Source of the DNA: a virus
Taxonomy: Duplodnaviria; Caudoviricetes
IMG/VR virus record: IMGVR_UViG_3300030376_004602
Coordinates: 1 to 64,000 of that record
DNA length: 64,000 bases
Direction: 5' to 3' (one strand)
Each line of letters opens with the position of its first letter. Positions within the stretch are counted from its first letter, which is position 1. Under the pieces are notes generated by a model. It saw only the letters and a program-made list of their open reading frames with translations. It searched no databases and had not been told where the DNA came from. The position numbers and the translations under genes were made by a program. This document shows, piece after piece, positions 2,852 to 43,536 of this stretch.

Positions 2852-2904
2852 AACAAGAAGAAAATGAAAACGAAACACCATACATCTTCCTCTATTGGGA
2901 TTAA
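2848..2904 (+). CDS. possible 18-aa microprotein MKQEENENETPYIFLYWD
   Basis: ATGA overlap with the upstream stop; ends just before the 2910 promoter-like motif. Confidence 0.3.
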   Translation: MKQEENENETPYIFLYWD

Positions 2905-2909
2905 ATGTT

Positions 2910-2918
2910 TAACTTTGT
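2910..2918 (+). promoter_or_regulatory. Bacteroidota primary-sigma -7 element TAACTTTGT
   Basis: Matches TAnnTTTG(Y), intergenic, about 20 nt before ATG 2938. Confidence 0.55.
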
Positions 2919-2937
2919 ACTTTAAAATAAATAGATA

Positions 2938-3393: not shown

Positions 3394-3403
3394 TACTTAA
3401 AAA

Positions 3404-3796
3404 ATGGCAACAACTACTGTTCGACTAACAATACAAAGTCCTGATTTAACATCAGATGTTCTCTCCATTAGTAAAGCGTTTAACCTGACTAGTGCATCTG
3501 GAACAGGTATTACACAAACTTCTGGGCTTAACCGTCTTGATGGATTAAATTCTATTACCACTATTTTCAAGGCAGCAGACTTCAGTAATGATGAAGCTTA
3601 CTTATTTGTAAGTAATCTAGCTGTTTCAAAAGCTGCAGGGTTTCAAGTAGAACTTACACAAGGGTCTCAGAAAGTAGCAGTAATACAGGCAGGAGATTCA
3701 ATACTTATGCCTATTGATCCTTCTGCACTTGATATTAAGCTTACTGCACCTACTGCTTCAACTGATGTAGAGTATCAACTATTTCATAACGGTTAA
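3404..3796 (+). CDS. structural protein, paralog 2
   Basis: MATTTVRLTIQSPDLTSD...TSGLNRL and C-terminal T.VEY.LF shared with 2938..3393. Confidence 0.7.
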   Translation: MATTTVRLTIQSPDLTSDVLSISKAFNLTSASGTGITQTSGLNRLDGLNSITTIFKAADFSNDEAYLFVSNLAVSKAAGFQVELTQGSQKVAVIQAGDSILMPIDPSALDIKLTAPTASTDVEYQLFHNG

Positions 3797-3801
3797 TAGT
3801 T

Positions 3802-4482
3802 ATGAACACTGTACCAGTTGGATTTAATGGGGCAATTAGTCCTAAGCTACAAGCGTGTGTTTCACAAGACTGTAAGAATATTACATTCTCGGATGTAACT
3901 CTTCTTTCTAGTGTAACAAATCCGTATGGCTGGACTACAGACCTTGCTGAAACTCCTCGTCCTAGAATACTTACTGCATTTAGTGAGATTAGAATTATTG
4001 TAACTAATACTTCTGGTACTGAGGTTATTAACCAAGTTGTATTTGGAGGTACTCTTAATCTTTTTCCAGCTATCGCAGACTTTAATGATAATATGCCATT
4101 ATCTACAGCAGTCTGGGGTCTGGACGACGGAGTATACTCTATTAACTACAAGTTTACTTACGCAGAAGTTCCTAGTTCTATTGGAGATCCTGATGATGAT
4201 CTAGCTCTAGCTGGTAAAGTAGTAGAAGCAAAAATGAATCAGGTAATAACCTGTAATGCTCAGAACGAGGTAAAAGACCTTTGGCTTAAATACCTTAATG
4301 ACTGCTGCAGTGCAAACAGAGATAAAGCTCTAGAAGCAGAAGCTCTGTTGTTTTCTGTAGAAGCTGCAGCTGCATGCGCTGATGAGTATAATGCCTCCCG
4401 CATAAAAGAAGCACTTGATAAGATTTTACTATTAGATTCAGATAAGTGCAATGTTTGTAAACACTCAAAATGTAAATGTTAA
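3802..4482 (+). CDS. structural protein with Cys-rich C-terminus
   Basis: Position in the late operon; ends KCNVCKHSKCKC. Confidence 0.65.
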   Translation: MNTVPVGFNGAISPKLQACVSQDCKNITFSDVTLLSSVTNPYGWTTDLAETPRPRILTAFSEIRIIVTNTSGTEVINQVVFGGTLNLFPAIADFNDNMPLSTAVWGLDDGVYSINYKFTYAEVPSSIGDPDDDLALAGKVVEAKMNQVITCNAQNEVKDLWLKYLNDCCSANRDKALEAEALLFSVEAAAACADEYNASRIKEALDKILLLDSDKCNVCKHSKCKC

Positions 4483-4484
4483 TC

Positions 4485-5471
4485 ATGGGCTGTAAAAACT
4501 GTAACGGAACTGTTTCCCAAAATATTCAACTACCCCCAGGGTGCGACTCTATTCAAGCTATAACTACTGATGTTACTGCTAAAGGTGATACTATTGTAAC
4601 AATTACTTTTTGTAGTGGAGCCCTTCAACAGTTTACTATTCCTGCTGGACAGTCTGGAGAAAATGGAGCTGATGGTGCTAACGGTGCTGATGGGGCTAAT
4701 GGAATAAGCATTGATGATATTACTTCCTCTGTAGAAGATAGTGTAGTAACTCTAACATTTACACTAAGCGATGGTAGTACCATTGTAGAGACGTTTGCTG
4801 TTGATACTCAAGAAGCACAAGCATATGTAATTGACCATGTCGGTTTAGATATACCTAATGAAGATAATATAGCTCCAACACTAAATGCTAATGGTCCTAA
4901 CTCTGTAATAGCTAAATCTCTTATTCCTGCCGGAAGCTTTCCAAACGGAGAGGATACTATTTACTTTGATATACTAATTAACCTGCAATATGCTGGTGCA
5001 TTAGCATTTGGAAAAGGTCGTGTTTCAAACATGTTTGAATTTCTTCGACTAGAGTTAAACTCTGATCCTAATCCAAGCACAAGTGGAATTGATTTACTTT
5101 TAGAATCTAACGATGCAAAAGTTACATTCCCTACTACTACTATTGCAGTAACAGGAGAAATAACTAAACGATCTGTAGAAGATAGACTAGGTAATCCTAA
5201 AGGAGAAGGTTTAGACCTCGTGGCAAACATGTCTGTCTACACAAATAGGACACAACCTAACAATACAGGGACTTTAACAGCTGTCGCTGGGAATCTTCAA
5301 AATCTTGTTTGGACTGTAAAAGATCAAACCGTAGATCTAAATGTAGACAATTATTTAAAAATTGTTGCTGCTCCTGGAGATTATATTGTAGACTCAGGAT
5401 CAACACAGACTGCTTATTCTGTATCTCCTACGCAAATTTATTTTACAACTAGATATCTACAAAGAAAATGA
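4485..5471 (+). CDS. structural/fibre protein with short collagen-like G-X-Y repeat
   Basis: GQSGENGADGANGADGANG; starts MGCKNC (ATG 4485 follows the upstream stop at 4482). Confidence 0.7.
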   Translation: MGCKNCNGTVSQNIQLPPGCDSIQAITTDVTAKGDTIVTITFCSGALQQFTIPAGQSGENGADGANGADGANGISIDDITSSVEDSVVTLTFTLSDGSTIVETFAVDTQEAQAYVIDHVGLDIPNEDNIAPTLNANGPNSVIAKSLIPAGSFPNGEDTIYFDILINLQYAGALAFGKGRVSNMFEFLRLELNSDPNPSTSGIDLLLESNDAKVTFPTTTIAVTGEITKRSVEDRLGNPKGEGLDLVANMSVYTNRTQPNNTGTLTAVAGNLQNLVWTVKDQTVDLNVDNYLKIVAAPGDYIVDSGSTQTAYSVSPTQIYFTTRYLQRK

Positions 5472-29700: not shown

Positions 29701-32700
29701 TGCTATTAATATGTCTAAGGCTAAGGTAAAGGCTCCACTAGTTCTTTATCGTGCTGTACAAAAAGGAGGCAAAATTAAGTTTGAGGTAAACCTTACAGAC
29801 CATAATAATACTGATAACTCTAAGCAGATCATAAATGAAATGCAGGAAGGCTTCCTAAATAAGCTGTATACATATAATCCTGAAACAGAAGAGTACGAGC
29901 CAGATGAGACTGCTTTCGAGAGAGCTATTCAGCTTTTAGAAAGCTACAAGAAGACTCCTCCAACCCAGAAAAATAGTGATAACTACAAGGACCTTAGAAA
30001 GCAACTACAAGAGGTCCTAGGTATATCCATCTCTACTCAAACTTTCCATACTCTTGCTACAAAAGGATATAGACTTGGAAGGCGTAAAGTTCTTCTTAAT
30101 AGAAAAAATAAGAACGTATTTAGTATTGACGGGGCTCCATTTAGAGTGTTATTAGACGCTCTTAAGAGTTCTAAAGGCAAGCCATTCAACCCTGAGGTAA
30201 ATGTCTTTACAGATAATGCTATTAAGAATCTAGCACAGATGGAATCTCTATCTCAGACAGCTACTCTTAGTAATGCTTTCCGTGTAGGCGATAAGACTAT
30301 CTATACATATACAGAGCATAACTATGCTACCTCTCAGATTCAGACTATTCTAACTGATCCAAAGTATAGAGAGCAGCTACAGAACACTGTCTTTGCAGGT
30401 GAAAGTCTTTGGCTACACATGATGTCTCCTATGGGAGGACAAGTCCTAGAGATAGACGGAGATGTTGATGCTGGTTCTAGTATTGAACTAGGTATTCTAA
30501 ACTTCCGCCCTGTCAAAGAAAGAAAGGAATCTAACCTAACTACTGATGACCTAGATGGTCAGAATATGGACGATAACCTCTTTACAAGGTTGGCTCTATT
30601 TACTGCAAATGCTAGTGCTAGTAGAAAGTCTATTGTAAAAAAGGACGAAAACAACAAAAATATTTACTCTTTTAAAAGCCGTAAAAGCACTACTGTACCT
30701 CTTGCTTACTCTGATAAACATTCAGTACTAACAGTAACAACAGCAATGCCTGTCTTTACTATTGGTAAGGGGGACGGGGTTACCTCGGATACCATTAATA
30801 TTTTTTACGAACATGTATTGATGGCAGAGATCTCTCGTATTCAAAATATGTTTGATATCGATGGAACTAACGATGCTGCATATGATGCCGGTAAGTCTGC
30901 TTTCCACCTAATGCCTGAGATGAATACTACTACGGTAAAAGATAGAGGTGGAGAAACAGACACTGTTGCAAACTATGCTGCTAGAGGAGCTTTTGATCCA
31001 ACATCTGTTAATTATGATGAAAAGGTTGTAGGAGCAACAAAGAGAGCACTGGGAGATCAACTTAATGTTCTTATTAATGAGCAGATAGAAGACTTTGCAA
31101 AAGCAGGTATTAACCAAGTAGCAGGAAAGAGTGAGGCTACTTTTGTATCTAGCGAGTACATCAAGATGCTAAAAGCCCAGCATAAAAATGCAGGAGTAAA
31201 ATTAGAAGGAAATAAGATTACTAAAGCTGTAGCTGCTGATTATGTGCTTAATCATATGCTGTCTACTGCAAACATGTTCCAAATGTTTGTAAAAGATCCA
31301 GCACTGTATACTAAAACAGATGGTGAAGGAAATGTAGACGCTGCTTCTACCTTAGAAAATATTCAGAAAAGACTTGCTGCAGTCATTGCACCAGGTACTG
31401 CTACTGCTATAGAAGAAGGTAATGATGCATATGTACAACTCTTTGCTAATGATGTTAAGTATTCTGAGTTCTTAGGAGAAGGAATTAAGGAGTACTTCAA
31501 AGGCATTAAGAATAAAAAGCACAGAGAGTCTTACAAGGGCGCTGAGATTACCGATGGTCAGGAGTTAATTACCTACCAGGAGTATCTAGGCACAATGGTT
31601 AGCCAAGGTCAGATTACAAAAGCAGAAAGAGCTCAGATAGAAGCTGTCGTAAAAGATCCAAATAAAAAGATTCCAGAGTGGATGATGGACGTTCTTTTTG
31701 GTGCAGAAAAACCAGTTGCTGTAGCTGATAAGTTCGTCACACTTAAAGATGGTCAGAGAATAGAAAAACGTGTCTATGTTAAAAGCTCGGGTCTACCTTT
31801 AATTCCTAAATTTACTAAAGGTACAGAGCTAGAAAATCTTAGAAAAGCTTTAGAACAAATACAAGAAAAAAGCGGTCTTCCGGTTAGACTTGCATTTAGT
31901 TCAGCAGTAAAAGTAGGATTGCCTGAAACTGCTAAAAACACTAATATCCAATATACAGAAAAGGATATAGAATCTCTAAAAGAGGAACTACCTGAAGGAC
32001 TATCTGCTGAAAGAAGGAATGAAGAAGAAGAAAAACTAGATGCTTTACTAGGTACTATTAAGCCTGTTAAGGAACTAGTGTCTATGTTTAATGGAGACCT
32101 TACAGAAAAAGAACTTAATAGTGATGAGGCTTTCTTAGAAGATGAATCTCTTCGACCTCCTAGGCAGATTCTACAACGTAAGTATTGGAGAATCCAGCAA
32201 GCTACTCCTAACAAGAATAAAGACATAGCTACTAGAGGTACTCAGGAGTCTAAGATTATTCTGTCTGAAGTAAAAGAAGCTTTTGGAGAAGAAGCAGGTA
32301 CTAAGCTTATTGAAGATTGGAACAGCCTACATAGTAAACTATTTGGTCTTCGTATTCACGAACTAGAAAGAGAGATTCTAAACCCAGACGGGTCTATAGA
32401 CAGAAAGGCCTTAGCTGAGTTCCTAGACAGAGATGCTAATGAAGGAGGAGTTAGTGTCAATACTAGATATGGATTAGAGGTAGATCAAAACGGAAAGTTC
32501 GTTATACCTCTGGATCTATCCGCTGGTACATTAGAATATCAAACTCTTATTAATGCTATAGCTAATAAGAGGATTGCTCAGAAGAAAGTAAAAGGACAGT
32601 CTACTGTATTAATGACTGAGTTTGGCTTCTCTATTAGAGAGGGCCAAGATCTATCAGACAGTGGTATTGTTTGGACTCAAGGGTTTGATTTTCAACATGG

Positions 32701-35700
32701 TAAGCTTAAGCCTGCTAGAGTAGAAAACGGAGTTGTTAAGCCTGCTCAGGTTATCGTGCCTAACAAGTTCTTTGTAAACGGTAAGAGGGTAAATCTTAAA
32801 AAGTACATTATCAAAGGTGAGCAAGGCCAGATGATTCTGGATACTAATCGTATGCCTGCTGAAATACTAAAAGGGTTTGGATTCCGTATTCCTACTCAAG
32901 GGTATAACTCTATGGCAGGTATTGAGATCGTAGGTTTCTTGCCAGAATCTATGGGAGACGTTGTCGTAGCCCCAGGTTCATTTGTAAACCAAATGGGATC
33001 TGACTTTGATATTGATAAAATGTTTAACTACTTCTATAAGCTAGAAAGAAGTACAATATCTCGAAGAGCGGTTACGGATGCAACTATTGCAATTAGTGAC
33101 GAAATAGCGGCAATAGAGTCTGGTAAGTCTAGCCTAGAAGACTTTAAGAAAAGAGGAGATAGTGAAGAAAATTACCAAGCTTATTTAGAAGATATTAATG
33201 ATCAGATAAAGTCTTTAGAAGAAGAGCTACAAAATCTGAAAAGTAAGAGTACTACTTTTGTAAAAGTAACAGCGGATGATTTAAAAGATAAACCTTTTAA
33301 TGAGCTTACTGAAAAGGAGATTGCTAGACTAGAAGATGCCTTGCTTAATGAAGGTCTCGACATGAGACTAAAGATTATGGGCAAGAATGAAATCTACCAG
33401 ACTATGTCTGCGCCTCTTGACTTTGGTCTATTAAAGTATAAAGACGAAGAAGGAAACGATACAGGTCTTAAGTTCTACTTTAAGGATAAGAGGATGTCTA
33501 CTAGAGCATCTAGCCGTAACCCTCTTGCACCTGGATATCATACACAGAAGTATCAAGATGCTAGGGGAGCAGGAGCAGGAGTTGGTGTATTTGCTAGAGG
33601 TATTACCTTCCAGTCAATGGCTCAATCAGGTGTAGATGTAATTCCAGGAGCTGACTTTAAGCTTGGTAGATTTAAGTCAAATAACATTACTGACTCAAAA
33701 ACTGTTACTAATAATAAACGCTCTAAGATAGAAGTCCTTACAGCATTCTTATCTGCCTCTCTTGATAATGAAAAAGAGCAGATCATGAACTACCTAAATA
33801 TTAATGATGATACTTTTAGTACAGCTACAGCTATGATTCACTCTGGCTTTGAGGAGGATCTTGTTTTGGCATTCTTGGAAAGTCCTGTTTTAAGACTACT
33901 AGCAGAAAATAAAAGATCAAGAACTAAAAAAACTCAGATAGCCTCATTTTCAATATTTAATAGGCTGGTATTAGACTTAGTGCCAAAAGATTATAAAAAC
34001 CTGACCGAAAAAGAAAAGGAAGAAGAAAGAGAAAAAATAATAGACGAGGCACGTAAAGAGCTAGCAGGCTCTTCTTTTGAAACTAAAGAAGAAACTTTTA
34101 ACAGGTTAATCCAAAACTCTGATGTTACTTTAAAATATACTCCTCCTAAGATAGGAGTAAGTAGTGCTAAAATACAGTTCTTAAATGAGGAAGGGAAGCC
34201 TTTAGAAAAAGATGAATTAAAAAGAGCAAAACTTTTAGCTATTGGGTCGCTAGATTTAACAGGACAATTCAAAGATATATCAACGGATATACTTGCAGCA
34301 CAAAGACTACTAAATGTAGATTCAGGAGGACTTGGTAAAAATGCTTATGAAGCGTATTCAAAACTAGAAGACTATATAGGCTTAGCAGATTTACAATTTG
34401 GAATATCGTTTCCTCACCCTATTTTTAAAGCTCTTATAGGAGAGCACAGGACTCTGGTTTATCCTGCAAAGATGGAAGGACAAGAAGAAGTAAATGCTGA
34501 AGAACTTGCAGAATATTTAACAAACGAAACTGAGCTAATAAATCAAGGCTTCATTAGGATAGCAAAAGCTCCAGGTAATACAGACGTATACTTTTTAAAA
34601 CCAGTTTCAACTCCAGCTACTATTTTTGCAGAGTCTATGGGGCTTACATCTCGTATATACGAGGATACAATGCCTGTATTAGTTGACTATGTTTTAAATA
34701 ATGTAGACCTATCCTATCCAGCAATTCCTAAAAGTCTTCGAAATCAGTTTCGTGCAGACAAAAAGGCTAAGATTGTACATGATACTCTTAGATCCATTCT
34801 ATTCTCTTCTACCGAAAACTGGATATCTGGTCAGTTTGAAGAGGCTACGGGACTAAGTACTCAGCCAACACAGCAAACTAGTGATACAATAAATATATAT
34901 GCAGGAACAAATGAGAATGCTGAGTTAAGTAATTTTGCTAACAGACCTGTAATGGATCCGTTAGGGGCTGAGTTCAAAAATGTAGAAGCAGCATTTCAAT
35001 ATGCTAAAACAAATTTTGCAGACGGAGACAATGAGTCTATCAAAATGAAACTCCAAAATGCTACTGGTGCACAAGCTAAGGCATTAGGTAGAAAGATTAA
35101 AGGTTTAGATGTAAAAGCTTGGGATGAAAACTCTGCAGCTATAATGAAGGGCCTCATAAAGGACTCTTTTGAGCAAAATCCTAAAGCTCTTGAAAAGCTA
35201 TTAGCTACAGGTAATGCTACATTAACTCATACACAAGATAAGACTAAGTACCGCGAATTGTTTCCTAAACTATTAATGGAAGTAAGACAGGAGTTAGGCG
35301 GTTCTCAATCAACAGCCTCAAGCCTGGTGCAGATTCGTAGAGCACTTATGTATGGAGATAACACTCTAGCACTGCGGGTTAAGGAAGCTATTAAAGATCG
35401 TAGACTTTCTAAGAACCCATTCCTAAAGTCTCTAGTTCTATCTACTAAAGCAGGCGAACGTCATAAGGTGACCTTTGCAAACTTTACTCCTGATGGTATG
35501 ATGGATGAGGACAAAGCAGATGCATTTGCTCAACTCTTTCTTATGCCTGACCAGAGTCCAATAGAGGGATTAAAACTAACTCCCGCACAGCTAGGAGCTC
35601 TTCTTGTAACTTACTCTATGGTAACAGGAGGTAACCAAAAGGCTCTGGAGTTTGTTAGGTTTGTTCCTAACTCTTATCTAGTAGGAACAGGTTTCTATAA

Positions 35701-38700
35701 AGCTATCAATGATAAGCTTACTGAAACTTTATCAACTCGTTCTGGAAAAACAAATCTTAGTATGTCTATTATGTCGCAGCTTGTTCAACACAATCCTACG
35801 TTAACTTATAGAAAGAAAAGAACTCAAACAATTAAGAAAATAGAAGGGTCAGATAACTTTACTATTTCTGGTTTAAAAGTAGAAGGATCAAAAAGTTTAG
35901 GCACCTTAAGAGCTGTTGATAAAAGCCAAAGGGTACCAGAAACCGTTCCCTTTTTACATACTATTTCTAAAAAAGGAAACATTTCCTTGTATTACTTTGA
36001 TGAAGATCTTAACACTCCTGGTAATAAAGCTATATATACTAAAATTGATGTTTTAGGAGATGGAGGAGACTTAAACGAGTTTTCTGCAGGTCTAATTAAT
36101 GCCCAGTCACAAAATGCATTTGGTATTTCTGTTGTACCGTCTAATAAAAAGGCATACGTAGAGGAGTCTCTTCAGCAAGAGGAAACTTCTGAGCCAGATG
36201 CTAAAGGAAAAATAGACTTAGAATCTCTTATACAGAAAGTAGTAAATAAAACAGTAGAAAAAGTAATCAAAGTAAATACAGAGCCTGGAGTTAAGGTATC
36301 AAGAAAACTAGAGTTAAATTCAAATGGAGAAAGTGATCCTATAAAAACTATAGAAGCAGTCGCTACAGGCTCTGACAGTCCTATGTTTAGACAACTTGCT
36401 GCGGCATTCTTAACTAGAAAAGACGATCTTAAAAATATAACGTTTAAAACCAAAGCTCTTAAAGATGGTAAAGATGCTGGAGGATCTTATACTTATGATA
36501 GCAAAACTATAGAGCTAAGCTACTCTAACGACAAGTTATATAATGAATATGCTATCCTTCATGAGTTTGGACATGCTTTGACTAAAGATGCTATAGTAGC
36601 ATTTGAAAAGGGGGGTACCTACCCTAATGCTAAGGTTAAGCAGGCAATGAAAAATATTGCCGAAGTTCAGAATCTATATGTTCAATACCTAGAAGCACTA
36701 AATCCTGTAGAGCTTGAGGCTTTCAAGAAAAAGTATGATGAGTATAGGAGAAGAAAGGGACTAAGCGGTAAAGATAGAGCTAAACTACCTCCTCTAGACT
36801 TTAGTAATAAAAAAGAACTAGGTAAGTACTACGGAGGTCTTAAGCTATCGGAGTTTGTTACTATGGTACTATCTGATGAGGTATTGCAAGCAGAGCTTGA
36901 TAAAGTAATGCCTACGTTAGAAGGAGCAGCTGCTGCATCTGAAAAGAGTTTGTTTAGAGAACTACTAGATGCTATTAAAGAAATTCTTGAAGGTCTTACA
37001 GGAGTTAGCCTGTCTAAGTATACTGTCGAGCAAGCAATGACTATTGTCACTCAAGGTATGGATACAAAAGTTCAAGGTAATCCTGGGTCTACTGCATCTA
37101 CAGATACTACTAATGATAGTGCTAAAGAATTTGCTAAAAAGTTTGCGCCTAAGATAAATCTTAAAATAAAGGGAGATAAGAATAAAGATTTATTACCAGG
37201 AAGTGAAGCCTCTAATGTGTTTGACTCTAATCCTAAACTAGCCAATCAAGTATATGGAGCTTTAGGACTTACTGTTGTGAACGAGTCTTCTACTAACATA
37301 GCTTCTACAATTTATGAGTTGATCCCAGATATTACAGAAAGCAAAATTGATGAAATATATAATAACTATGTTTCACTAATAGGAAAAGCCAGAAAGGATA
37401 AAGAAATATCTAAAGATGCTTTCAAAAAATTATTGAGAAAGTACCAAGTCTTTAACTACAAGGATACCTACATATTTGGGCAGTATGATATGGACAATGG
37501 GCTATTTGTAACTAGAATAAACTCATCTCCTACTTCTAAAGAGCTACTAGCTGAAGCTTTACCTACATTAGTAAAGCAAGGGATTGATTTTGCATCGTTT
37601 GTGCCTAAGGATGTAGCTCAGAAATATAAGAGAAGTGGGTACTCTCTAAGTAAAGAAGGTTTTGCCTATAACTTTAAGGGGGAAGATATGGTTAAATACC
37701 TAGCTGTTTCTAATCCAAACATATCTCTAAAAGTCTTTGGTAAAACTTTAGAAGAAATCTCTGCTAAAGAAATAAAAGACTTTAGCAAGGATCAGACACT
37801 AAGCTATAAACCAGTGGAGATAAAAGGAGAGCTAATAGAAAAGGCAGGTAATGATTTATCTAAGATACTAGAAACATACCTTAATCAATTTGGTATAGTA
37901 GTAAAGGATGTAAGTACTATAAAAAATGCTCTAAATATTGATGAATTAGGATTTGCTGATATCTTGTCTAAAGTTGCTTATGTAGAAAACAACAAGGATC
38001 TTCCTCCTATTGCAGGAGAGTTTATTGCCTACATGATGCAGTATAACCCTCTAGTATCTGAGATAATAAAAGAGCTATCACAAACAGAAAACTATAAAAA
38101 ATTAGACAAGTCAGAGTATTTTAAAATTGTAGGAGGATTAATCTCTGATGATCTACAAAATAAACTAGATGAAAATTATTCTCAGTCTTTACTACAAAAG
38201 TTAAAGCAGTTAATACAAGAGTTTTTCAGCCTACTAAGAGGTACTCGTATAGATTTAATAAACAAGAATGTAGGTATCATTTCTAACAATATTCTACAAC
38301 AAAATAAAAAGCTAATTACAGCTTCTTTGTATAAGCCTGGAGCTTATGGAAAGCCTACTAAACAAGTTAGTTTAAAAGAGGCAATGGCTTCTGATAAATT
38401 TGGTTCTTCTATCATCAACAAGTTAGCTAAGGAAGGCTTTATATTAACAGGTTCTACCTCTCTAGGAGAACAAGGTACTATACAAAGACCAGATGAAAAT
38501 CTACTGCATGATATTGACTGGGTAAGTCCTTTTAATAGAGAAAAGACTGCTGAAAAGTTTTTAAAACAGTATCCAGATGCTATAAAAATTAGAGACATAC
38601 AAGGAGATAGTTTTGTTACAGATACTTGGATTATATCCCCTGAAGGATATAGTATAAAAAATCTAAACAAACAATCTGATTACAATATAATTACTTCTTA

Positions 38701-39226
38701 CGATGTTGTTGATAACAAAGGAAATATTGCAGGTACATACAGACTAGAAAAAAAGGCTAAACAAAAAAGAAAAGAAGAAGTTGTATCAGGAGTTGAAGCT
38801 AAAGTTATAGACTTCTTCTCTTATGATGACTTCAATCAATTAACGCCTTTTGTAAAAGATAATGTGGAGCTTGCTAATTGGAAAGAAATTTTTAAAGCCA
38901 AGCTGCAGTTTGGAAGATATAAAGATATTTGGGACTTCAATAGATTTATACCTAATGAAAATCTTTCTGAAATAACTCCACAACAAAAGCAAATAGCTCA
39001 ACAAAGATATTCTGACTATGTAGCTCAGACTGGGAAACAAGATATAGAAGGGTTTAAAGACTTTGTCAGAGAACCAGCCCAGCAAAGAGATAGTTTACCA
39101 ACTTCAAATACTGTAGATTTGGGGGTAGATATAGTAGATTTCTTAAAACAACTAAGCCCAGAAGAGCGTAAGTTCTATAACAAGCTATTCCAAGAAGGAC
39201 AGTTCACAGTAAAATGTAGAAAATAA
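23789..39226 (+). CDS. virion-packaged two-barrel RNA polymerase of crAss-like phages, fused to accessory effector domains (5145 aa)
   Basis: FRIPTQGYNSM (RIP at 32885) and GSDFDIDK (DFDID 33002-33016); size and position between cargo genes. Confidence 0.92.
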   Translation: MAKKKKTPPPITSLDNSRGYSGRLHAGTFSGATRDATSLFGNAVFAETLKGLQENAESRSNDYKILRQQAANEQGGFEKFGTALVSGVSKGLVNGVNGIVSLVPYPDDVSAEGLQNWNWDIMSDDFSDRSMLSNYLDEGSKAIGLQMPIYDENPYNFYAGMDAGLTSIGEFAIPGKIISKGVGLAAKTVGRALRGVGRGVRGATSLGRMSTRSRLAKFGARTDDFLTRMSMSPKNQAFLQTGASGFAMNRFEGTVMGHQVYEETMQELAPAVAAGQLTEEEAQSYANQAALSVRNKNAGMMMTDMFAMYGIFKAKGMTRNLLTKPGFTSAVKNNLLSAKAWNPLKKAAATNPFYQALVEGGEEIIQSNIQKQSQYDALKGAEALAASRVGKEEELVYVPDSDSYYERLKDNLFSKDAAFEGAIGFFSGPIQSVALEQGMGIKPLLDNRKYKNYTKEINALQQSIKPGGSVTGLAKKLKVQEQIEDLKLKRAQETSKGAYEEQQRVIGEVKADVKNALKETVNMEDLIEEVQEKGVEGVEELLEGTAFVNTAVKHFQNGTTENLERMLKDLAEGKGDPATFGENTQQKAADLLTEMLEMEKQWLRYHDFENKASIFAAIQNEKEIDKAINRTQSQKENAQAKILTQLNEYAPSNNYGFDENGNLTITPKSEEEKKLDDDLPGQQTSLFPTNDEVRAFYERMPEKKELDEVNQTQNTFREVKGEVSKFLNNIASGKGQRAAKKLRKQREKAARRAAKRIMATNKVEAGEKTKAKTNSEKSAISNAQAKVNSDSKIVVKKVKPKAPTAPPPPTSAEKKSKEEKEIEKGKAAETNRRTTAKNGEPLKSVFAKAIAKAAAKSKEKEPVNDDSASEGENFTKSTENKSSHIQGRTDGVTNDSENAFWTLSDPSLTAEGDVITFQVEDQNIGAANDPTSPTRGLKVIDVKGRKKEIAKHENSTYGSNISEDQAADDAEAIAIYNERGDRIGYVGSPLAISSKRRNMTTEEMLEEKENLRTIRAQILSKTRNGEAAKGKINSITKQYTNFKEEGSPDSRSIDVFGTDVIIGVATAEGVTFEGGSNNLTQAAGSKIEAKMEDSERLDDLTPGLPYAFVPVRKDNKGAIYYEAFPLLPQDLNAGFINTVIYALKSWAGGIDANIDKQNRDEASATLGLNLKKNTKLRSLSMLLERFFLPRTEHPYVADDETRTYIYLNQSNSENEVIELVENVGGQQFVRGTIRRGEQLTEDTIATLEQFLANEQVQIDLRNIDGIPYIITDRDGNVKESIELADFKTHVLKNTTTGLNPVESVLNATGRTIFYKSPKVTFSVESDRSLDTSAPENEQEEEKPPWDTSKESDLTIEQISKLPFVERIPALIKAGIIASDVTYNVGKRFPIIVNIGGVKVGFYRSSEGTGGKKKGAWTPMFGYGEDGGNPWLIKGNIATQVNVNYGSSAIQEYADILNKTLNWDLSIDKGQVKDHPFYKELRLVESTQAFNKELYGVENLGIINGETDVSGFINSKVQEINAATGKPSYDEADQVDPDILSDLETDDDLPSSSEDSFIRGIEKEEYTEEERNELEDIISRYVKDPEDGYDAVIYFTQGTTPPGRGIEDFLSVEANLNRDPLYKKWQEKHTERIKKESTRDTAPDVDDLVGDAVPPEVKEEHNKRHIKGLTPTQNFEIVGHLANTMFRKLVELTTDQRVKKVSRNKLYQEALEETMASFDKYIARLEKNLARKQAQENEALKNKMEARIAGLKKYKQAVENEAAKTKELATQKLNQFEGVKGQRSEEDLENIEETAHERRNFSEDFFLTVDSKKSTSKALRKFLSSIPLIKTKTQTIKKGDDNITVSSKAMPARTTFGAPKYADFDSVYNKLHSLEVGSDANLSNQLTKLAQLYVDYPGMKQELNWLPGLIVSLGIDNLQGTKKNNRGEEKTLADVFLEEALGPDDADLSNLVKLMASTDFGVPAGEKIQRQFAINMSKAKVKAPLVLYRAVQKGGKIKFEVNLTDHNNTDNSKQIINEMQEGFLNKLYTYNPETEEYEPDETAFERAIQLLESYKKTPPTQKNSDNYKDLRKQLQEVLGISISTQTFHTLATKGYRLGRRKVLLNRKNKNVFSIDGAPFRVLLDALKSSKGKPFNPEVNVFTDNAIKNLAQMESLSQTATLSNAFRVGDKTIYTYTEHNYATSQIQTILTDPKYREQLQNTVFAGESLWLHMMSPMGGQVLEIDGDVDAGSSIELGILNFRPVKERKESNLTTDDLDGQNMDDNLFTRLALFTANASASRKSIVKKDENNKNIYSFKSRKSTTVPLAYSDKHSVLTVTTAMPVFTIGKGDGVTSDTINIFYEHVLMAEISRIQNMFDIDGTNDAAYDAGKSAFHLMPEMNTTTVKDRGGETDTVANYAARGAFDPTSVNYDEKVVGATKRALGDQLNVLINEQIEDFAKAGINQVAGKSEATFVSSEYIKMLKAQHKNAGVKLEGNKITKAVAADYVLNHMLSTANMFQMFVKDPALYTKTDGEGNVDAASTLENIQKRLAAVIAPGTATAIEEGNDAYVQLFANDVKYSEFLGEGIKEYFKGIKNKKHRESYKGAEITDGQELITYQEYLGTMVSQGQITKAERAQIEAVVKDPNKKIPEWMMDVLFGAEKPVAVADKFVTLKDGQRIEKRVYVKSSGLPLIPKFTKGTELENLRKALEQIQEKSGLPVRLAFSSAVKVGLPETAKNTNIQYTEKDIESLKEELPEGLSAERRNEEEEKLDALLGTIKPVKELVSMFNGDLTEKELNSDEAFLEDESLRPPRQILQRKYWRIQQATPNKNKDIATRGTQESKIILSEVKEAFGEEAGTKLIEDWNSLHSKLFGLRIHELEREILNPDGSIDRKALAEFLDRDANEGGVSVNTRYGLEVDQNGKFVIPLDLSAGTLEYQTLINAIANKRIAQKKVKGQSTVLMTEFGFSIREGQDLSDSGIVWTQGFDFQHGKLKPARVENGVVKPAQVIVPNKFFVNGKRVNLKKYIIKGEQGQMILDTNRMPAEILKGFGFRIPTQGYNSMAGIEIVGFLPESMGDVVVAPGSFVNQMGSDFDIDKMFNYFYKLERSTISRRAVTDATIAISDEIAAIESGKSSLEDFKKRGDSEENYQAYLEDINDQIKSLEEELQNLKSKSTTFVKVTADDLKDKPFNELTEKEIARLEDALLNEGLDMRLKIMGKNEIYQTMSAPLDFGLLKYKDEEGNDTGLKFYFKDKRMSTRASSRNPLAPGYHTQKYQDARGAGAGVGVFARGITFQSMAQSGVDVIPGADFKLGRFKSNNITDSKTVTNNKRSKIEVLTAFLSASLDNEKEQIMNYLNINDDTFSTATAMIHSGFEEDLVLAFLESPVLRLLAENKRSRTKKTQIASFSIFNRLVLDLVPKDYKNLTEKEKEEEREKIIDEARKELAGSSFETKEETFNRLIQNSDVTLKYTPPKIGVSSAKIQFLNEEGKPLEKDELKRAKLLAIGSLDLTGQFKDISTDILAAQRLLNVDSGGLGKNAYEAYSKLEDYIGLADLQFGISFPHPIFKALIGEHRTLVYPAKMEGQEEVNAEELAEYLTNETELINQGFIRIAKAPGNTDVYFLKPVSTPATIFAESMGLTSRIYEDTMPVLVDYVLNNVDLSYPAIPKSLRNQFRADKKAKIVHDTLRSILFSSTENWISGQFEEATGLSTQPTQQTSDTINIYAGTNENAELSNFANRPVMDPLGAEFKNVEAAFQYAKTNFADGDNESIKMKLQNATGAQAKALGRKIKGLDVKAWDENSAAIMKGLIKDSFEQNPKALEKLLATGNATLTHTQDKTKYRELFPKLLMEVRQELGGSQSTASSLVQIRRALMYGDNTLALRVKEAIKDRRLSKNPFLKSLVLSTKAGERHKVTFANFTPDGMMDEDKADAFAQLFLMPDQSPIEGLKLTPAQLGALLVTYSMVTGGNQKALEFVRFVPNSYLVGTGFYKAINDKLTETLSTRSGKTNLSMSIMSQLVQHNPTLTYRKKRTQTIKKIEGSDNFTISGLKVEGSKSLGTLRAVDKSQRVPETVPFLHTISKKGNISLYYFDEDLNTPGNKAIYTKIDVLGDGGDLNEFSAGLINAQSQNAFGISVVPSNKKAYVEESLQQEETSEPDAKGKIDLESLIQKVVNKTVEKVIKVNTEPGVKVSRKLELNSNGESDPIKTIEAVATGSDSPMFRQLAAAFLTRKDDLKNITFKTKALKDGKDAGGSYTYDSKTIELSYSNDKLYNEYAILHEFGHALTKDAIVAFEKGGTYPNAKVKQAMKNIAEVQNLYVQYLEALNPVELEAFKKKYDEYRRRKGLSGKDRAKLPPLDFSNKKELGKYYGGLKLSEFVTMVLSDEVLQAELDKVMPTLEGAAAASEKSLFRELLDAIKEILEGLTGVSLSKYTVEQAMTIVTQGMDTKVQGNPGSTASTDTTNDSAKEFAKKFAPKINLKIKGDKNKDLLPGSEASNVFDSNPKLANQVYGALGLTVVNESSTNIASTIYELIPDITESKIDEIYNNYVSLIGKARKDKEISKDAFKKLLRKYQVFNYKDTYIFGQYDMDNGLFVTRINSSPTSKELLAEALPTLVKQGIDFASFVPKDVAQKYKRSGYSLSKEGFAYNFKGEDMVKYLAVSNPNISLKVFGKTLEEISAKEIKDFSKDQTLSYKPVEIKGELIEKAGNDLSKILETYLNQFGIVVKDVSTIKNALNIDELGFADILSKVAYVENNKDLPPIAGEFIAYMMQYNPLVSEIIKELSQTENYKKLDKSEYFKIVGGLISDDLQNKLDENYSQSLLQKLKQLIQEFFSLLRGTRIDLINKNVGIISNNILQQNKKLITASLYKPGAYGKPTKQVSLKEAMASDKFGSSIINKLAKEGFILTGSTSLGEQGTIQRPDENLLHDIDWVSPFNREKTAEKFLKQYPDAIKIRDIQGDSFVTDTWIISPEGYSIKNLNKQSDYNIITSYDVVDNKGNIAGTYRLEKKAKQKRKEEVVSGVEAKVIDFFSYDDFNQLTPFVKDNVELANWKEIFKAKLQFGRYKDIWDFNRFIPNENLSEITPQQKQIAQQRYSDYVAQTGKQDIEGFKDFVREPAQQRDSLPTSNTVDLGVDIVDFLKQLSPEERKFYNKLFQEGQFTVKCRK
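34886..35300 (+). other. NADAR (YbiA/DUF1768) domain inserted in the vRNAP
   Basis: LSNF...FKNVEAAFQYAK...AKALGRKI...W...IM...FEQNP...LLATG...LTHTQD...LLMEVR; flanked by S/T/Q linkers. Confidence 0.85.
36338..37048 (+). other. zincin-like metallopeptidase domain in the vRNAP
   Basis: AGGSY...ILHEFGHAL (HExxH 36560-36574), downstream LSEFV as third-ligand motif. Confidence 0.8.
37438..37717 (+). other. GNAT-like domain in the vRNAP C-terminal region
   Basis: FVPKDVAQKYKRSGY resembles the GNAT C-terminal motif (A..Y.r.GF/Y) after a beta-helix-beta pattern. Confidence 0.4.
38380..38950 (+). other. Pol-beta-superfamily nucleotidyltransferase domain in the vRNAP C-terminal region
   Basis: LTGSTSL (GS 38450), HDID (38507-38518), VIDFF, and AK....RYKD.WD. 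Confidence 0.7.
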
Positions 39227-42200
39227 TGAGTAAGAAATGCAGCATAGACCATAAGAAGCCAACACTAGCCCGACTAATGCACAAGTTTGGGGATGTAAGA
39301 GGCTTTTCTATCTATTATAAAGAAAGTGCTAAGAATGGCCAACTAGACGATTGGATAGAAAATAAGTACTTGAAGGAGTATAATGATGCTACAGTAAACT
39401 CAAGAAATAAATATAAGACCCACCCAGAATCTGCTAGGGGGTATAGCGCACAAACAGAAGCCATAGAAGAAGCTCTTGGCCTAGCTAGCTGGACTGCTAA
39501 AGGAGGTTTAAATAAACGCTCTTACGATGAGTCTAACTCTGATCGTAAGATTAATGACTCTCTGCTAAAGGCTAGACAATACTTAGTAGAAGAAGGATTA
39601 CAAGATCAATATGAAGCTGTAAAAGGTTTAGCCAAAACTAGAGGAAAGCTACAGGTAAGGATTAGGCCTAGACAAGATTCCGACTTCTTAGTAGAAAACG
39701 CTAATGTACCTTTTGTAGATGAGCTAAGACGCCGTGCTCAAGCCCTTACTAGAGAAAATCAGAATCTTACTAATAAAAGAAAATCTGAAGGCATTACTGA
39801 AGCTGAAGAACGAAAGATTATTGCTAGACAACAAGTCCTAAATAACGAGCTAGAACAAATTGATCAAGAGATTTATAATTTTCATAAAAGCTTCAACATC
39901 AATAATTTGATGAAACAACTAGATGAAGATCATGCTTTTATGGAGGACTTTTTATCTCAGGAAGAGTTTGAATCTGATGAGTTTTATGAGAAGGTACGTC
40001 AGGCTGTAGATAAGTTAGAGGTCTGGGAAGCTGCATCTCAAGCTCCTATCCAGGGGGTACACCCATTTCTTGATGAAGCAGAAGTAAAAAATGAGAATGC
40101 AGTAAAAGAAGTTACTAGTAAATCAAGAGACTTCTATTTAAGATATGCTGACGCTATTGCTGAGAGAAGAAACACTGCTATTGTAGAATTTACTCGAGAG
40201 CATACTATTAGCGATAACATGAGTGATCAAGAAATCTTGTCTATTGTTGAAGATATGACGGGTTTAAGAGCTGGTGTTTTAAACCTTGGACAGGCTGAAC
40301 AGCCTTTACTACAAGGTGTATTTGCTGCTGTTACAAAGGCTAACCTAAAGTTTCAGCAACAAGCAGACACAGATTTACAAAGATTGTCTGAGCTGGCTAA
40401 GAATATATCTCAAGATACCCTTGACGCTATGTATCAAAAAGATGCTCAAGGTAGACATACTGGTAGACTAGTAAACCCATACTCTCTAGAATACTATAAT
40501 GAAAGACAGGGTGTAATCTCTGCAGTAGCAGATGCTAGGGCTGAGTTAGACTCTCTACCTGAGGATACTCCTGATGTTGTCTTTAACACAGTAAAGAAAA
40601 AACTACAAAACGCTTTTAAAAAGCAGGCTGCTTGGTATAAAAAGAATCAAATGAGTCTTAGTCCTGTAGGTATTATTGCAGATGAAGATACCACGGATGG
40701 TACTCTACCTGCTGAATATCTAGACGATAGAGCTGTAGATGATGATAGTGAAACCAAGATAAGAGAACAACTAGTAGAAAGAGTAGGAGAAAGACAGACT
40801 AATAATATTATCAAGAATATAAAGAAGAGGACTATACAGTTCCAAGCTGCGAGAGATGCTTACTATCTTGACCTGCTAGGTTCTCGTTCCCCCGAACAAG
40901 GACTTGATGAATATAGCAAACAACTATTCGAGTTTTGGCTTGAGCAAAATTCTCCATATAAAATACTAGAGCCGGGAAGAAAGCTAACCTCCTTCAAGGA
41001 TATAGACGGATTCACTCAGAAATCATATGCTAAGTATAAGTATGTATCTGCCATACCTAATCCAAATGAAGAAAGATTCTACGACCAGAACTACCAGGCT
41101 GTACTAGCTGATCCAAATGCTGCAGAACTATATGATATGTTCCGTACGTTTATGGCAGAAGGTAGAGATATGCTAGGAGATGTTGACGGATTTTTAACAG
41201 GTCTGTCTATTCCGCTTCTTGAAGAATCTCTACGTAAGCAGATGTTCCAAGAACAAGGCCTGATGGCAGCAAGAAGTTTTCTAACAGACTCAATTATAAA
41301 AAGTCTACGAGAAGCATCTAGCTCTAGCAACCAAAACCAAAGAATCAATCCTGCTACAAACAGGGAGACTAAGGTTATTAATGTATCTAATCTTTCTCAA
41401 AATATTATCTCTAAACAAGTAAAGGTTAGACAAGAGGAACTAATTGATGAGTATAAGCAGAATAATCCAGGTAAGCCTATTACACTGGAGCTAAAAAGAG
41501 AACTCAAAAAAGACGCACTCGATGATGTATACCGTAAATCTGCTACCAACATTATTGGAGCAATGGCATACTATAGAGTAAACTCTCTAATGGCAGGTAA
41601 TCGCCGTGTACTAGAGCCTCACATGGCTATCATTAAGAACTTTGTAGCTGAGCAGATGGTAGAGGAAAAGACTCTGGGTATAGTAGATAAGGTAAAACAA
41701 GTTACAGGTAAGCCTACAACTAAAGAAAAACAACAGGCTAACAATATGATAAAGGCGCTTGACCATTATCTAGATGAGAGCTTGTATGGAATTTCTACAA
41801 AGAAAAAAGGCGCTACTCTAGGTAAAGTACTTACCTCAGAAGAAAAGCAGAGAGCAGAGTCTATAAAAACTAGACTTGAAGAAATTAATGAGCAGTTAGA
41901 TAAGCTAAAGAAAAAACTAGCTACAGGAGAATATTTAACTGGAGAAGAGGAAGCTCTGTATGATAGACTAGAAGAGCGTAAGAATTTTCTAGAAAAAGAG
42001 TTTGAAAATATAGGAGGGGAGATATCAGCAACGAAAGCTGCAGACGGCTTGTTAAGATTAACACAAGCACTTGGTATTGGTTTTTCCGTGCCGTCAGCCG
42101 TTGCTAACACTGGGTTCGGATATATAGCCAATATGATTGAAGCAGGTAGGGGAAGAGATTACAATGTTCGTAACCTACAAAGATCGTATGCAATGACTAT

Positions 42201-43536
42201 GGGCTCTGTATCTACATCACCTGAAACATATTCAGGGGATAGAGTAGCTACAAAGAATACAATTACTGAACTTTCTAAAAAGTACGCCATTGGTACTCCA
42301 CCTGTAGAGCAGAGACCACAAACCAACTATAGAAAGTTTGGTAAGAAAAATATCTTTGGAAGAGTTAAGTCTGGTAAGAGTCTGGAAGAAAGAGCTTACG
42401 TAATGATGGAGAAGACTGAGTACATAAACCAAGCTACTCAGATGGCAGCCATAATGCTTTCTACTAAAGTCATTATGAAAGATGGTACTGAAACTAATCT
42501 TCTAGAAGTCTACAATAACTCAGACCTATCTATAGATGATGTTACTCAGTATAAAATTTATGGTGGAGATAACTTTAGAGACTTTGAGGAATTACAGTTT
42601 ATTGTCTACGTCAAGAATGTAATCCACAGAACTCATGGTGACTATGAGAATAAAATCATGTTCAAGAATAATCTACTGGGTAGGGCTCTATCCCAGTATA
42701 GAACTTGGATGTATAGAACTGTAGCTGATAGATTTGATATTGAACGCTATGATGGTATTGGAGGTTACACAACTAAAGGCCGCTATCGCTCAGCTGTACC
42801 AATGGGAGTAATGCCATTCTTTAATGCGCTTATTCCTCCGGTAATCTTTGCTCGTACTAAAGATCAGAAAAAGAAAAAAGAGGTGTCTATGAAAAATAAG
42901 GCAGGTACTACTTTAAGAAATACCCTGTCTACTACTAAGACATTTGCTTCATCTTTCCTTAGAAACCCTTTCAAGTTCAATAAGATCATGAAGGAAAAGC
43001 TACAGGATGAGTATGAAAAAGTAGATGCAGAAAACATTGCCGCAGCATACACTGAATGGATAGCATATCTTACAATTTCTCTAATGAGTAAGTTATTAAT
43101 ACTCTGGGCTAACTCTGCACTAGACGATGAGGATGAACTTACTGCACAGAAAGGAGCAGTAATCTTTGCACTAAATATGCTAAAGAGATTTGAAAACGAC
43201 CTTGGGTTCTATGTAAACCCACTAGAAGCTAGCCGTCTTGTAGATAATCCTATACCTGCGTATTACTTGCAGGAAAAAGGAACTAGACTATTTGATTCTA
43301 TTGGAAGAATCTTTGATGACAGACCAATGGAAATTCAGTCTGGTATTTATGAAGGTTGGAACTGGATAGGAAGAGATGCTTTAAAAGTTATTCCAGGCGC
43401 AATCGGAGTAGATAAAATTTACCGTAACATAACTGCAGATCTAGCAACAGGTAAGAAGGTTGAAGATGACTACAGCGTATTTTCTAGAGGAGACATCTAC
43501 GACAAGGCATTAGGTATAGATAAAAAAGAGGACTAA
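39226..43536 (+). CDS. virion cargo (ejection) protein, 1436 aa, vRNAP-associated
   Basis: TAATG-coupled to the vRNAP; helical/coiled composition with C-terminal hydrophobic helices; position matches the crAss-like cargo block. Confidence 0.75.
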   Translation: MSKKCSIDHKKPTLARLMHKFGDVRGFSIYYKESAKNGQLDDWIENKYLKEYNDATVNSRNKYKTHPESARGYSAQTEAIEEALGLASWTAKGGLNKRSYDESNSDRKINDSLLKARQYLVEEGLQDQYEAVKGLAKTRGKLQVRIRPRQDSDFLVENANVPFVDELRRRAQALTRENQNLTNKRKSEGITEAEERKIIARQQVLNNELEQIDQEIYNFHKSFNINNLMKQLDEDHAFMEDFLSQEEFESDEFYEKVRQAVDKLEVWEAASQAPIQGVHPFLDEAEVKNENAVKEVTSKSRDFYLRYADAIAERRNTAIVEFTREHTISDNMSDQEILSIVEDMTGLRAGVLNLGQAEQPLLQGVFAAVTKANLKFQQQADTDLQRLSELAKNISQDTLDAMYQKDAQGRHTGRLVNPYSLEYYNERQGVISAVADARAELDSLPEDTPDVVFNTVKKKLQNAFKKQAAWYKKNQMSLSPVGIIADEDTTDGTLPAEYLDDRAVDDDSETKIREQLVERVGERQTNNIIKNIKKRTIQFQAARDAYYLDLLGSRSPEQGLDEYSKQLFEFWLEQNSPYKILEPGRKLTSFKDIDGFTQKSYAKYKYVSAIPNPNEERFYDQNYQAVLADPNAAELYDMFRTFMAEGRDMLGDVDGFLTGLSIPLLEESLRKQMFQEQGLMAARSFLTDSIIKSLREASSSSNQNQRINPATNRETKVINVSNLSQNIISKQVKVRQEELIDEYKQNNPGKPITLELKRELKKDALDDVYRKSATNIIGAMAYYRVNSLMAGNRRVLEPHMAIIKNFVAEQMVEEKTLGIVDKVKQVTGKPTTKEKQQANNMIKALDHYLDESLYGISTKKKGATLGKVLTSEEKQRAESIKTRLEEINEQLDKLKKKLATGEYLTGEEEALYDRLEERKNFLEKEFENIGGEISATKAADGLLRLTQALGIGFSVPSAVANTGFGYIANMIEAGRGRDYNVRNLQRSYAMTMGSVSTSPETYSGDRVATKNTITELSKKYAIGTPPVEQRPQTNYRKFGKKNIFGRVKSGKSLEERAYVMMEKTEYINQATQMAAIMLSTKVIMKDGTETNLLEVYNNSDLSIDDVTQYKIYGGDNFRDFEELQFIVYVKNVIHRTHGDYENKIMFKNNLLGRALSQYRTWMYRTVADRFDIERYDGIGGYTTKGRYRSAVPMGVMPFFNALIPPVIFARTKDQKKKKEVSMKNKAGTTLRNTLSTTKTFASSFLRNPFKFNKIMKEKLQDEYEKVDAENIAAAYTEWIAYLTISLMSKLLILWANSALDDEDELTAQKGAVIFALNMLKRFENDLGFYVNPLEASRLVDNPIPAYYLQEKGTRLFDSIGRIFDDRPMEIQSGIYEGWNWIGRDALKVIPGAIGVDKIYRNITADLATGKKVEDDYSVFSRGDIYDKALGIDKKED

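Follow-up and report, generated by a model that had tools for sequence, protein, structure and literature searches.

A putative Pol-beta nucleotidyltransferase in an apparently mobile cassette of a crAss-like phage virion RNA polymerase

The AbiEii proteins are nucleotidyltransferases (NTases) whose four sequence motifs were given by Dy et al. (2014, PMC3985639) as hG[GS] (motif I), R..DhD with x=15 (motif II), KLxAaxxR (motif III) and +DxxD (motif IV). Mutation of each of these motifs abolishes toxicity, and mutation of motif I, II or IV also abolishes GTP binding (PMC3985639). In MenT3, the triphosphate of the nucleoside triphosphate (NTP), in this case CTP, is held by the residues R76, K79, K189 and R205 (PMC11162799). 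The Pol-beta NTase of the polyvalent proteins, described by Iyer et al. (2017, PMC5512222), is a minimal form built from four strands plus three helices that is fused to ArdC-N and has been reported only from conjugative elements of Firmicutes. For the crAss-like phage phi14:2, delivery of the RNA polymerase gp66 together with the DNA has been shown in the published literature. Here we describe an NTase domain near the end of a giant open reading frame (ORF) of 5145 amino acids, located in a stretch of 64,000 nucleotides from a virus of the Caudoviricetes (Duplodnaviria; IMG/VR record IMGVR_UViG_3300030376_004602, positions 1 to 64,000), which is referred to below as the window. In our interpretation, to which we assign a rough probability of 0.55, the domain is an active Pol-beta NTase that ends a mobile cassette of GNAT, helical and NTase domains, is injected into the cell, and moves a nucleoside monophosphate (NMP) onto a host target, the best guess for this target being an RNA 3' end.

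Residues 2784-3410 of the ORF match the RNA polymerase gp66 of phi14:2 (PDB 6VR4) with an E-value of 3.6e-30, and the protein is accordingly predicted to be a crAss-type virion RNA polymerase. The first-pass annotation, which was made from the DNA letters, had placed an NTase at the end of this polymerase, in ORF residues 4865-5054. This location was borne out, as the NTase domain stops 82 residues short of the stop codon of the same ORF that matches 6VR4. The four elements on which the annotation was based, namely GS, HDID, the Asp of VIDFF and KLQFGRYKDIWD, are all present in frame +2 of the ORF, within residues 4888-5049 (Table 1). The HDID sequence is encoded at 38507-38518 (residues 4907-4910), and KLQFGRYKDIWD is encoded at 38900-38935. 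It is important to mention that the pattern GS-x(10-22)-DxD also occurs by chance at residue 2868 of the same protein, so that the bare motif is weak evidence.

The conservation of these motifs was analyzed in a full HMMER scan, in which residues 4838-5145 were compared with 1.84 billion representative proteins. The scan retrieved 295 proteins at E <= 1e-3, 55 of them at E <= 1e-30. Nearly all of the matched proteins are giant, with a median length of 2205 amino acids among those that contain the full domain. From 150 database homologues, 133 copies of the domain were extracted, which are 25-70% identical. In the domain numbering used below (add 4837 to obtain the protein numbering), G51, S52, H70, D71, D73, D171, K201, R206, K208, D209 and D212 are invariant in all 133 copies, and R63 is present in 128 of them. 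The same invariance can be observed in a cropped alignment (A2) of 31 copies from the IMG/VR loci. Outside the invariant residues the domain drifts to 25-35% identity. Since the residues expected to take part in catalysis and NTP binding are invariant and the remainder drifts, the pattern is typical of an active enzyme, and the domain is apparently catalytically competent.

The AlphaFold2 model of the domain, built with alignment A1, has a mean predicted local distance difference test score (pLDDT) of 89.9 and a predicted template modeling score of 0.84. It shows the alpha-beta-alpha-beta-alpha-beta core fold of the NTases in a domain that has about 200 residues, more than 10 strands and, at its C-terminus, a helical motif. 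The hG[GS] motif and the following DxD can be observed as L-T-G51-S52 and H-D71-I-D73, associated with the strands E48-50 and E71-76, and the invariant D171, the predicted third catalytic carboxylate, lies on the strand E168-175. Between the DxD strand E71-76 and the D171 strand E168-175 the model contains one helix and six further beta strands. The distance from D73 to D171 is 97 residues, as compared to 63 residues from D82 to E146 in MenT3, which indicates a family-specific, beta-rich insertion before the third carboxylate. The Pol-beta NTase fold proposed from the motifs was supported by a Foldseek comparison with the PDB, in which the clear structural matches are Pol-beta nucleotidyltransferases without exception. 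The best matches include JHP933 (E 9.8e-5), MenT1 (E 9.2e-4), TglT/MenT3 and MenT4, and TM1012 and the giant-virus poly(A) synthases were also retrieved. LnuA, ANT(2'') and TM1012 equal the MenT proteins as fold matches.

The NTase domain was not matched by the sequence models of Pfam (E <= 1), PHROGs or NCBIfam. For the AbiEii family PF08843, hmmscan gave no match at E <= 1, and the six reading frames of the complete 83-kb record contained none at E <= 10; the Pfam model PF10706 was likewise unmatched at E <= 1. The defense models of PADLOC gave no match to an NTase toxin model, the only hit being a chance match to PtuA (E 0.025). The comparison of a single-sequence query with the PDB sequences (phmmer) returned chance matches only. 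Profile A1 was contaminated by flanking sequence in the comparison with the PDB sequences; the cropped profile A2 retrieved only JHP933, with an E-value of 0.29, in a match confined to the part that leads up to GS. No match was found in 50,697 GenBank phage records using tblastn and megablast.

For the profile-profile analysis, an AbiEii alignment was constructed from 27 PF08843 genes of Myxococcota genomes (consensus fkGG ... R...D.D ... AEKL ... R.RD.yD) and compared with the 133-sequence family using hhalign. A single collinear local alignment of 190 columns was obtained, with a score of 26.8, a P-value of 0.0067 and a probability of 5.7%. In this register, LTGS pairs with fKGG, R..HDlD with R..DlD (at the cost of 4 inserted residues), and AKL..R.KDIWD with AEKL..R.RD.YD. 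The scores of 60 column-shuffled AbiEii controls were 11.2 +/- 1.6, with a maximum of 16.6, and the reversed alignment scored 12.0. As a scale, two recognized families, AbiEii and NTP_transf_5, score 39.2 against each other. The phage family scored 21.5 against NTP_transf_5, with the C-terminal motif and the third Asp unaligned, and 23.0 against NTP_transf_2, over 72 columns only and with G[GS] out of register. Neither NTP_transf_5 nor NTP_transf_2 fits the phage family better than AbiEii. The C-terminal motif had been called AbiEii/MenT-like, and this part of the annotation stands, as A-K201-L-x-F-x-R206 and K208-D209-I-W-D212 align to AEKL ... R.RD.YD of the 27 AbiEii sequences, that is, K..R.KD..D corresponds in register to AbiEii motifs III and IV. 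Membership in PF08843 itself did not follow.

The NTase domain is usually accompanied by other domains. A comparison of the whole 5145-residue protein with the 150 homologues showed that the NTase mostly travels with about 340 residues before it, and the cassette is collinear across 33 IMG/VR loci (tblastn). Folding of residues 4495-4840 with alignment A3 gave two parts, of which the second, helical part has a pLDDT of only about 50. The GNAT domain contains a sequence similar to motif B, A..Y.RSGY, and a pyrophosphate loop R-x-N-S-S-P-S/T-S in place of R/QxxGxG/A. Among the 156 proteins searched, the NTase is preceded by the helical domain in 74, and 45 contain the GNAT domain as well. Moreover, a complete gene of 453 amino acids on a 91.7-kb phage contig (P0074) consists of the helical domain and the NTase only. 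Together with the two counts, this gene indicates that the helical domain is the usual companion of the NTase and that the GNAT domain is optional. A length-restricted homologue search for stand-alone forms retrieved 14 proteins, mostly fragments at contig ends; P0043 is a fragment.

The boundaries of the cassette are defined by close relatives of the polymerase protein. Over residues 3236-3690, 3834-4451 and 5055-5145, P0117 shows about 70% identity. Missing from it are residues 4452-5054, which correspond to the whole cassette, and residues 3691-3833, which contain the NADAR domain, and residue ~4451 is joined straight to ~5055. P0116, which is equally close in the flanks, has another module of about 370 amino acids (its residues 1071-1443) at the cassette site 37142-38950; no Pfam match was found for this module. 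The cassette site thus behaves as a swap hotspot in these comparisons. Both relatives, with flanks about 70% identical, are also without NADAR, and residue 3690 is joined directly to ~3834-3843, so NADAR is a second presence/absence module of the polymerase protein.

The position of the cassette also shifts between proteins. In P0013, at locus L012, it lies inside the polymerase, between segments equivalent to residues 1963-2714 and 2960-3421. A crAss-type RNA polymerase catalytic segment is found within 10 kb of the NTase in 27 of the 33 IMG/VR loci, in the same ORF in 7 of them and in another ORF in 20. In most of these 20 loci the polymerase ORF lies upstream, and a separate protein, often of about 2200-3200 amino acids, begins with the cassette. 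In L005 (5608-13542) and L017 (8408-16303), for example, the cassette opens a protein of about 2630 amino acids after the polymerase gene; LysM was identified in both proteins, and a stretch of the NlpC/P60 type (LytE-like) in that of L017. These features fit an ejected virion protein that acts on the cell wall. Because P0117 lacks the cassette, P0116 has a different module in its place, and the cassette shifts from one protein to another, we regard it as accessory and, judging from these comparisons, mobile among crAss-like phages. The NTase as a fixed partner of the polymerase was rejected, since P0117 does without the cassette at about 70% identity.

The distribution of the domain was analyzed in prokaryotes as well. 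In the 185,579 prokaryote species genomes of GTDB the NTase domain was found at one locus (L034), as compared to the 33 viral loci of IMG/VR. This locus is located on the 138.8-kb contig CAZBMJ010000002.1, which was binned as an uncultured Myxococcales metagenome-assembled genome, and a crAss-type polymerase segment can be observed downstream of the NTase; the contig may be of phage origin and mis-binned. In the data searched, the NTase family is thus essentially confined to viral sequence, and with one GTDB locus only there is no host signal.

The positions of the features discussed here are presented in Table 1.

Table 1. Features of the polymerase ORF and of its cassette in the window. Residues are those of the 5145-residue protein; residue numbers within the motifs follow the domain numbering.
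Feature	Residues	Positions	Strand	Basis
Virion RNA polymerase polyprotein ORF (predicted), bears the cassette	5145 aa	23789..39226	+	frame +2; 6VR4 match
RNA polymerase catalytic region, including DFDID (residues 3072-3076, 33002-33016)	2784-3410	32138..34018	+	6VR4 match
NADAR domain inside the polymerase protein (Pfam PF08719, E 8.7e-13)	3691-3833	34859-35287 (Pfam match 34913-35236)	+	
HEFGH zincin motif upstream of the cassette; candidate processing protease	4258-4262	36560..36574	+	motif
Accessory cassette as a whole (~600 aa)	~4452-5054	37142..38950	+	bounded by comparison with the cassette-less P0117
Cassette domain A, GNAT (acetyltransferase) fold	~4505-4670	37301..37798	+	
Cassette domain B, all-helical, conserved AG.(F/I)IA(Y/F)MMQ(H/Y)NPL	~4680-4837	37826..38299	+	alignment, model
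Cassette domain C, Pol-beta-fold nucleotidyltransferase (structured core 38357-38965)	4838-5063	38300..38977	+	conservation, AlphaFold2 model, Foldseek
Motif I, G51-S52, in FILTGS	4888-4889	38450..38455	+	invariant in 133 copies; aligned to AbiEii fKGG
Motif II, R63 ... H70-D71-I72-D73; D71 and D73, predicted metal-binding Asp pair		38486..38518	+	matched to AbiEii R...DlD, 4 residues inserted
Third carboxylate D171, in VIDFF	5008	38810..38812	+	invariant; strand E168-175 of the model
Motifs III and IV, K201-L-x-F-x-R206-x-K208-D209-x-W-D212	5038-5049	38900..38935	+	K, R, K, D, D invariant
Conserved C-terminal tail of the polymerase protein, outside the cassette	5055-5145	38951..39223	+	comparison with relatives

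Several further observations were made in the regions bordering the cassette domains. A junction peptide, FDSNPKLANQVYGALGL, is encoded at 37220-37270 (residues 4478-4494), and its form KPGVEELFDSNPELANQVYEALGF recurs at module boundaries of several giant phage proteins, before and after the cassette. It was also found at P0008:118, P0026:329, P0049:690 and P0058:3050, and in L024 just past the NTase. This peptide may serve as a linker, mark a cleavage site or represent a recombination seam. After the NTase, at residue 5062, a second short motif, ITPQQK, is present, which was also observed in the crops of loci L005 and L023. In a marine protein from TARA (P0085), residues 287-341, located after the NTase, score above the curated cut-off for PF08302 (E 4.4e-7), a 2H phosphoesterase domain of the tRNA-ligase CPD type. 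This domain is compatible with a chemistry of RNA ends or nucleotide signals, and it may equally be an independent neighbor on the string.

The last ~70 residues of the polymerase protein (…DLPTSNTVDLGVDIVDFLKQLSPEERKFYNKLFQEGQFTVKCRK) are kept at the C-termini of P0116 and P0117, which are without this cassette, and also in the short database fragments P0090 and P0109. This suggests that the polymerase protein ends in an element that has a function of its own. The HEFGH region gave only a weak Peptidase_M78 match in Pfam (E 0.011), and the HEFGH motif is kept in the cassette-less P0117. The next ORF, of 1436 amino acids (39226-43536), begins at the polymerase stop codon and has no Pfam or PHROG match; it weakly resembles the proteins that come after the cassette in L012, L016 and L023. 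No tRNA genes were found in the window.

As the polymerase of crAss-like phages is injected with the DNA, anything fused to it reaches the host before phage gene expression. On the model of phi14:2 and the gene order, the cassette would enter the cell with the polymerase at infection, and it could possibly be freed by the upstream HEFGH zincin. In the active site, D71, D73 and D171 would hold two Mg2+ ions, and S52, R63, K201, R206 and K208 would hold the NTP triphosphate, as R76, K79, K189 and R205 do in MenT3. Within the first minutes of infection, the enzyme would then move an NMP from the NTP to a hydroxyl of the host target. This target may be an RNA 3' end, for example the acceptor end of a tRNA, with the helical domain aiding the binding. 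Among the nearest solved enzymes, MenT1, MenT3 and MenT4 act on tRNA 3' ends, and LnuA and ANT(2'') act on antibiotics. The RNA 3' end is the acceptor that we propose, and we do so tentatively.

Several points weigh against this interpretation. The NTase domain is recognized by none of the Pfam, NCBIfam, PADLOC, PHROGs and PDB sequence models, the hhalign probability against AbiEii is just 5.7%, and the fold of the helical domain is uncertain at a pLDDT of about 50. Since the MenT-type enzymes, which act on RNA, and the LnuA/ANT(2'') type, which act on small molecules, are tied as structural matches, the fold gives no pointer to the substrate, and the motifs shared with AbiEii/MenT are silent on the acceptor because they bind the NTP. 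Moreover, a tRNA extension of the MenT type would damage the translation of the phage as well, and the packaging, ejection and processing of the 5145-residue protein are extrapolated from phi14:2 and the gene order.

A small-molecule nucleotidyltransferase like LnuA or ANT(2''), which would act with the GNAT domain to inactivate a host or community molecule that blocks infection at DNA entry, is an unlikely reading that nevertheless has some support. Such a molecule could be, for example, an aminoglycoside- or lincosamide-like compound or a nucleotide-derived defense signal. The phage domain is short, like LnuA and ANT(2''), and is without a C-terminal helical bundle. Additionally, an Atlas feature search listed a Bacteroidota cluster annotated as "nucleotidyltransferase family protein", with PF10706 in 40% of its members, at a score of 0.92; with 119 shared features this score is a lead only. 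The PF10706 model of Pfam is unmatched by the domain, whose K..R.KD..D aligns to AbiEii motifs III and IV, and the PF10706 sequences available for a profile were too few (1 in 201 genomes). The matches of the GNAT domain are unspecific, protein and amino-acid acetyltransferases being ranked higher, and a few injected enzyme molecules would face the whole pool of the small molecule. It is quite improbable that the cassette is a two-enzyme countermeasure, delivered with the virion, that acetylates and nucleotidylates a chemical or nucleotide-based anti-phage defense molecule on DNA entry. If it were, it would be a phage-borne, injected counterpart of the AAC and ANT resistance enzymes, traded among crAss-like phages.

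After injection, the ADP-ribosyltransferase Alt of phage T4 modifies a host protein. The NTase of the cassette could similarly AMPylate or otherwise nucleotidylate a host protein, for example one of defense, transcription or translation, with the GNAT domain acetylating the same or another protein; this, too, we consider unlikely. A swappable accessory cassette fits an arms-race effector, and Iyer et al. (2017, PMC5512222) argued that in polyvalent proteins the GNAT and Pol-beta NTase domains have proteins as their targets, with reference to RimI-like GNATs and to the minimal NTases of HEPN-MNT systems. However, minimal NTases of the MNT type are absent from the top structural matches, and the hhalign alignment to NTP_transf_2, with G[GS] out of register, spans just 72 columns. 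The NTase of Iyer et al. is a minimal four-strand form known from conjugative elements only, whereas the phage domain has about 200 residues and C-terminal motifs of the AbiEii type.

The nucleic acid of the phage itself was also considered as the substrate, that is, a poly(A) or terminal transferase that tails the early transcripts of the co-injected polymerase or adds nucleotides to the incoming genome at its ends. For the tailing of transcripts there is a parallel in giant viruses and poxviruses, which package poly(A) polymerases. The NTase is tethered to the virion RNA polymerase or encoded beside it in 27 of the 33 loci, several models of the "poly(A) polymerase catalytic subunit" of nucleocytoplasmic large DNA viruses were matched in the viral structure library (E 4e-3 to 3e-2), and an Atlas viral cluster contains Poly_A_pol_cat in 11% of its members. 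Nevertheless, MenT1, TM1012 and LnuA are better matches than these poly(A) polymerases, and 20 loci place the NTase on a different giant protein, with cell-wall-binding domains. P0117 is about 70% identical and lacks the cassette, and P0116 carries the other module. Because such a close relative of the polymerase is without the cassette, the NTase is unlikely to have a housekeeping role in transcription, and the suggestion of the first-pass annotation that the enzyme tails nascent transcripts is weakened; we consider this reading, overall, decidedly improbable. An acceptor other than those named above is no more probable than this. A catalytically dead or structural domain, which would serve as a packaging or spacer module with a retained NTase-like fold, would agree with the fact that no family hidden Markov model recognizes the domain and with the ~100 residues and six extra beta strands between the DxD strand and the third-Asp strand, longer than in the solved relatives, but it is very improbable, as the expected metal- and NTP-binding residues are all invariant in the 133 copies while the remainder drifts to 25-35% identity.

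The fold and the chemistry are already known; what is new is a family unrecognized by the current models, and an NTase with a fixed helical-domain pairing and a frequent GNAT pairing as a mobile cassette on crAss-like virion proteins that are predicted to be injected. In the literature searched we found no description of an NTase in crAss-like polymerase proteins, which is not proof that none exists. The mobile cassette on such proteins includes an enzyme that is apparently active and related to the MenT/AbiEii toxin fold, and it is present, absent or replaced among close relatives and jumps between the polymerase and the neighboring giant virion protein. It would offer a concrete example of first-minute effectors in an abundant and poorly cultured phage group. 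The list of enzymes of phage-type polyvalent proteins would also be widened, as the 2017 survey (PMC5512222) reported Pol-beta NTases in conjugative elements only. If the target is the end of a tRNA, the phage would employ the chemistry of a toxin with which bacteria counter phages; if it is a small molecule, this would be a new kind of counter-defense. The natural polymerases with and without the cassette are ready-made controls.

In comparison with the known systems, the phage domain appears to share the four signature motifs of the AbiEii/MenT toxins, with the Arg and DhD of motif II, after an unusually long spacer, aligning only across the 4-residue insertion; these toxins are AbiEii of S. 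agalactiae, MenT1, MenT3/TglT and MenT4 of M. tuberculosis and JHP933 of H. pylori. Like MenT1, it is a short version without a C-terminal helical bundle. The spacer from GS to DxD has 15 residues in AbiEii and 18 in the phage domain. In AbiEii about 13 residues separate the Lys of motif III from RD, whereas in the phage domain the two motifs are contiguous (K-x4-R-x-KD), the distance between them being about 6 residues shorter. At the position of S78 of MenT3, which is phosphorylated and located at -2 from the first Asp, the phage domain has Leu. The helical domain that precedes the NTase is specific to the phage family and distinguishes it from AbiEii/MenT. Moreover, AbiEii and MenT are toxins of toxin-antitoxin systems (antitoxins AbiEi and MenA), whereas the phage domain is a fused part of a 5145-residue virion protein without an antitoxin gene.

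LnuA, ANT(2'')-Ia and TM1012, which are of the PF10706 (Aminoglyc_resit) type, are similar to the phage domain in fold, whereas their PF10706 model does not match it; they are enzymes of cells or of resistance with antibiotics as their substrates, and the phage NTase is a domain of a virion protein. The poly(A) polymerases in the virions of giant viruses (the polyadenylate synthase of Megavirus/Mimivirus, PDB 4p37/4wse) are weaker matches than MenT1, TM1012 and LnuA. They are two-domain enzymes of about 500 amino acids from eukaryotic viruses, whereas the phage cassette is dispensable for the polymerase. The polyvalent-protein NTase (PMC5512222) resembles the phage NTase in that it forms part of a multi-domain protein which is delivered along with a mobile element's DNA, in an arms-race string that includes a zincin protease. 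The phage domain, with its ~200 residues, motifs III and IV of the AbiEii type, and occurrence in a phage with a crAss-type RNA polymerase, is set apart from the published description of that enzyme (PMC5512222). Rather than as a member of PF08843, we place the phage NTase in a distinct family, within that part of the Pol-beta superfamily which comprises AbiEii/MenT - LnuA/ANT(2'')/TM1012.

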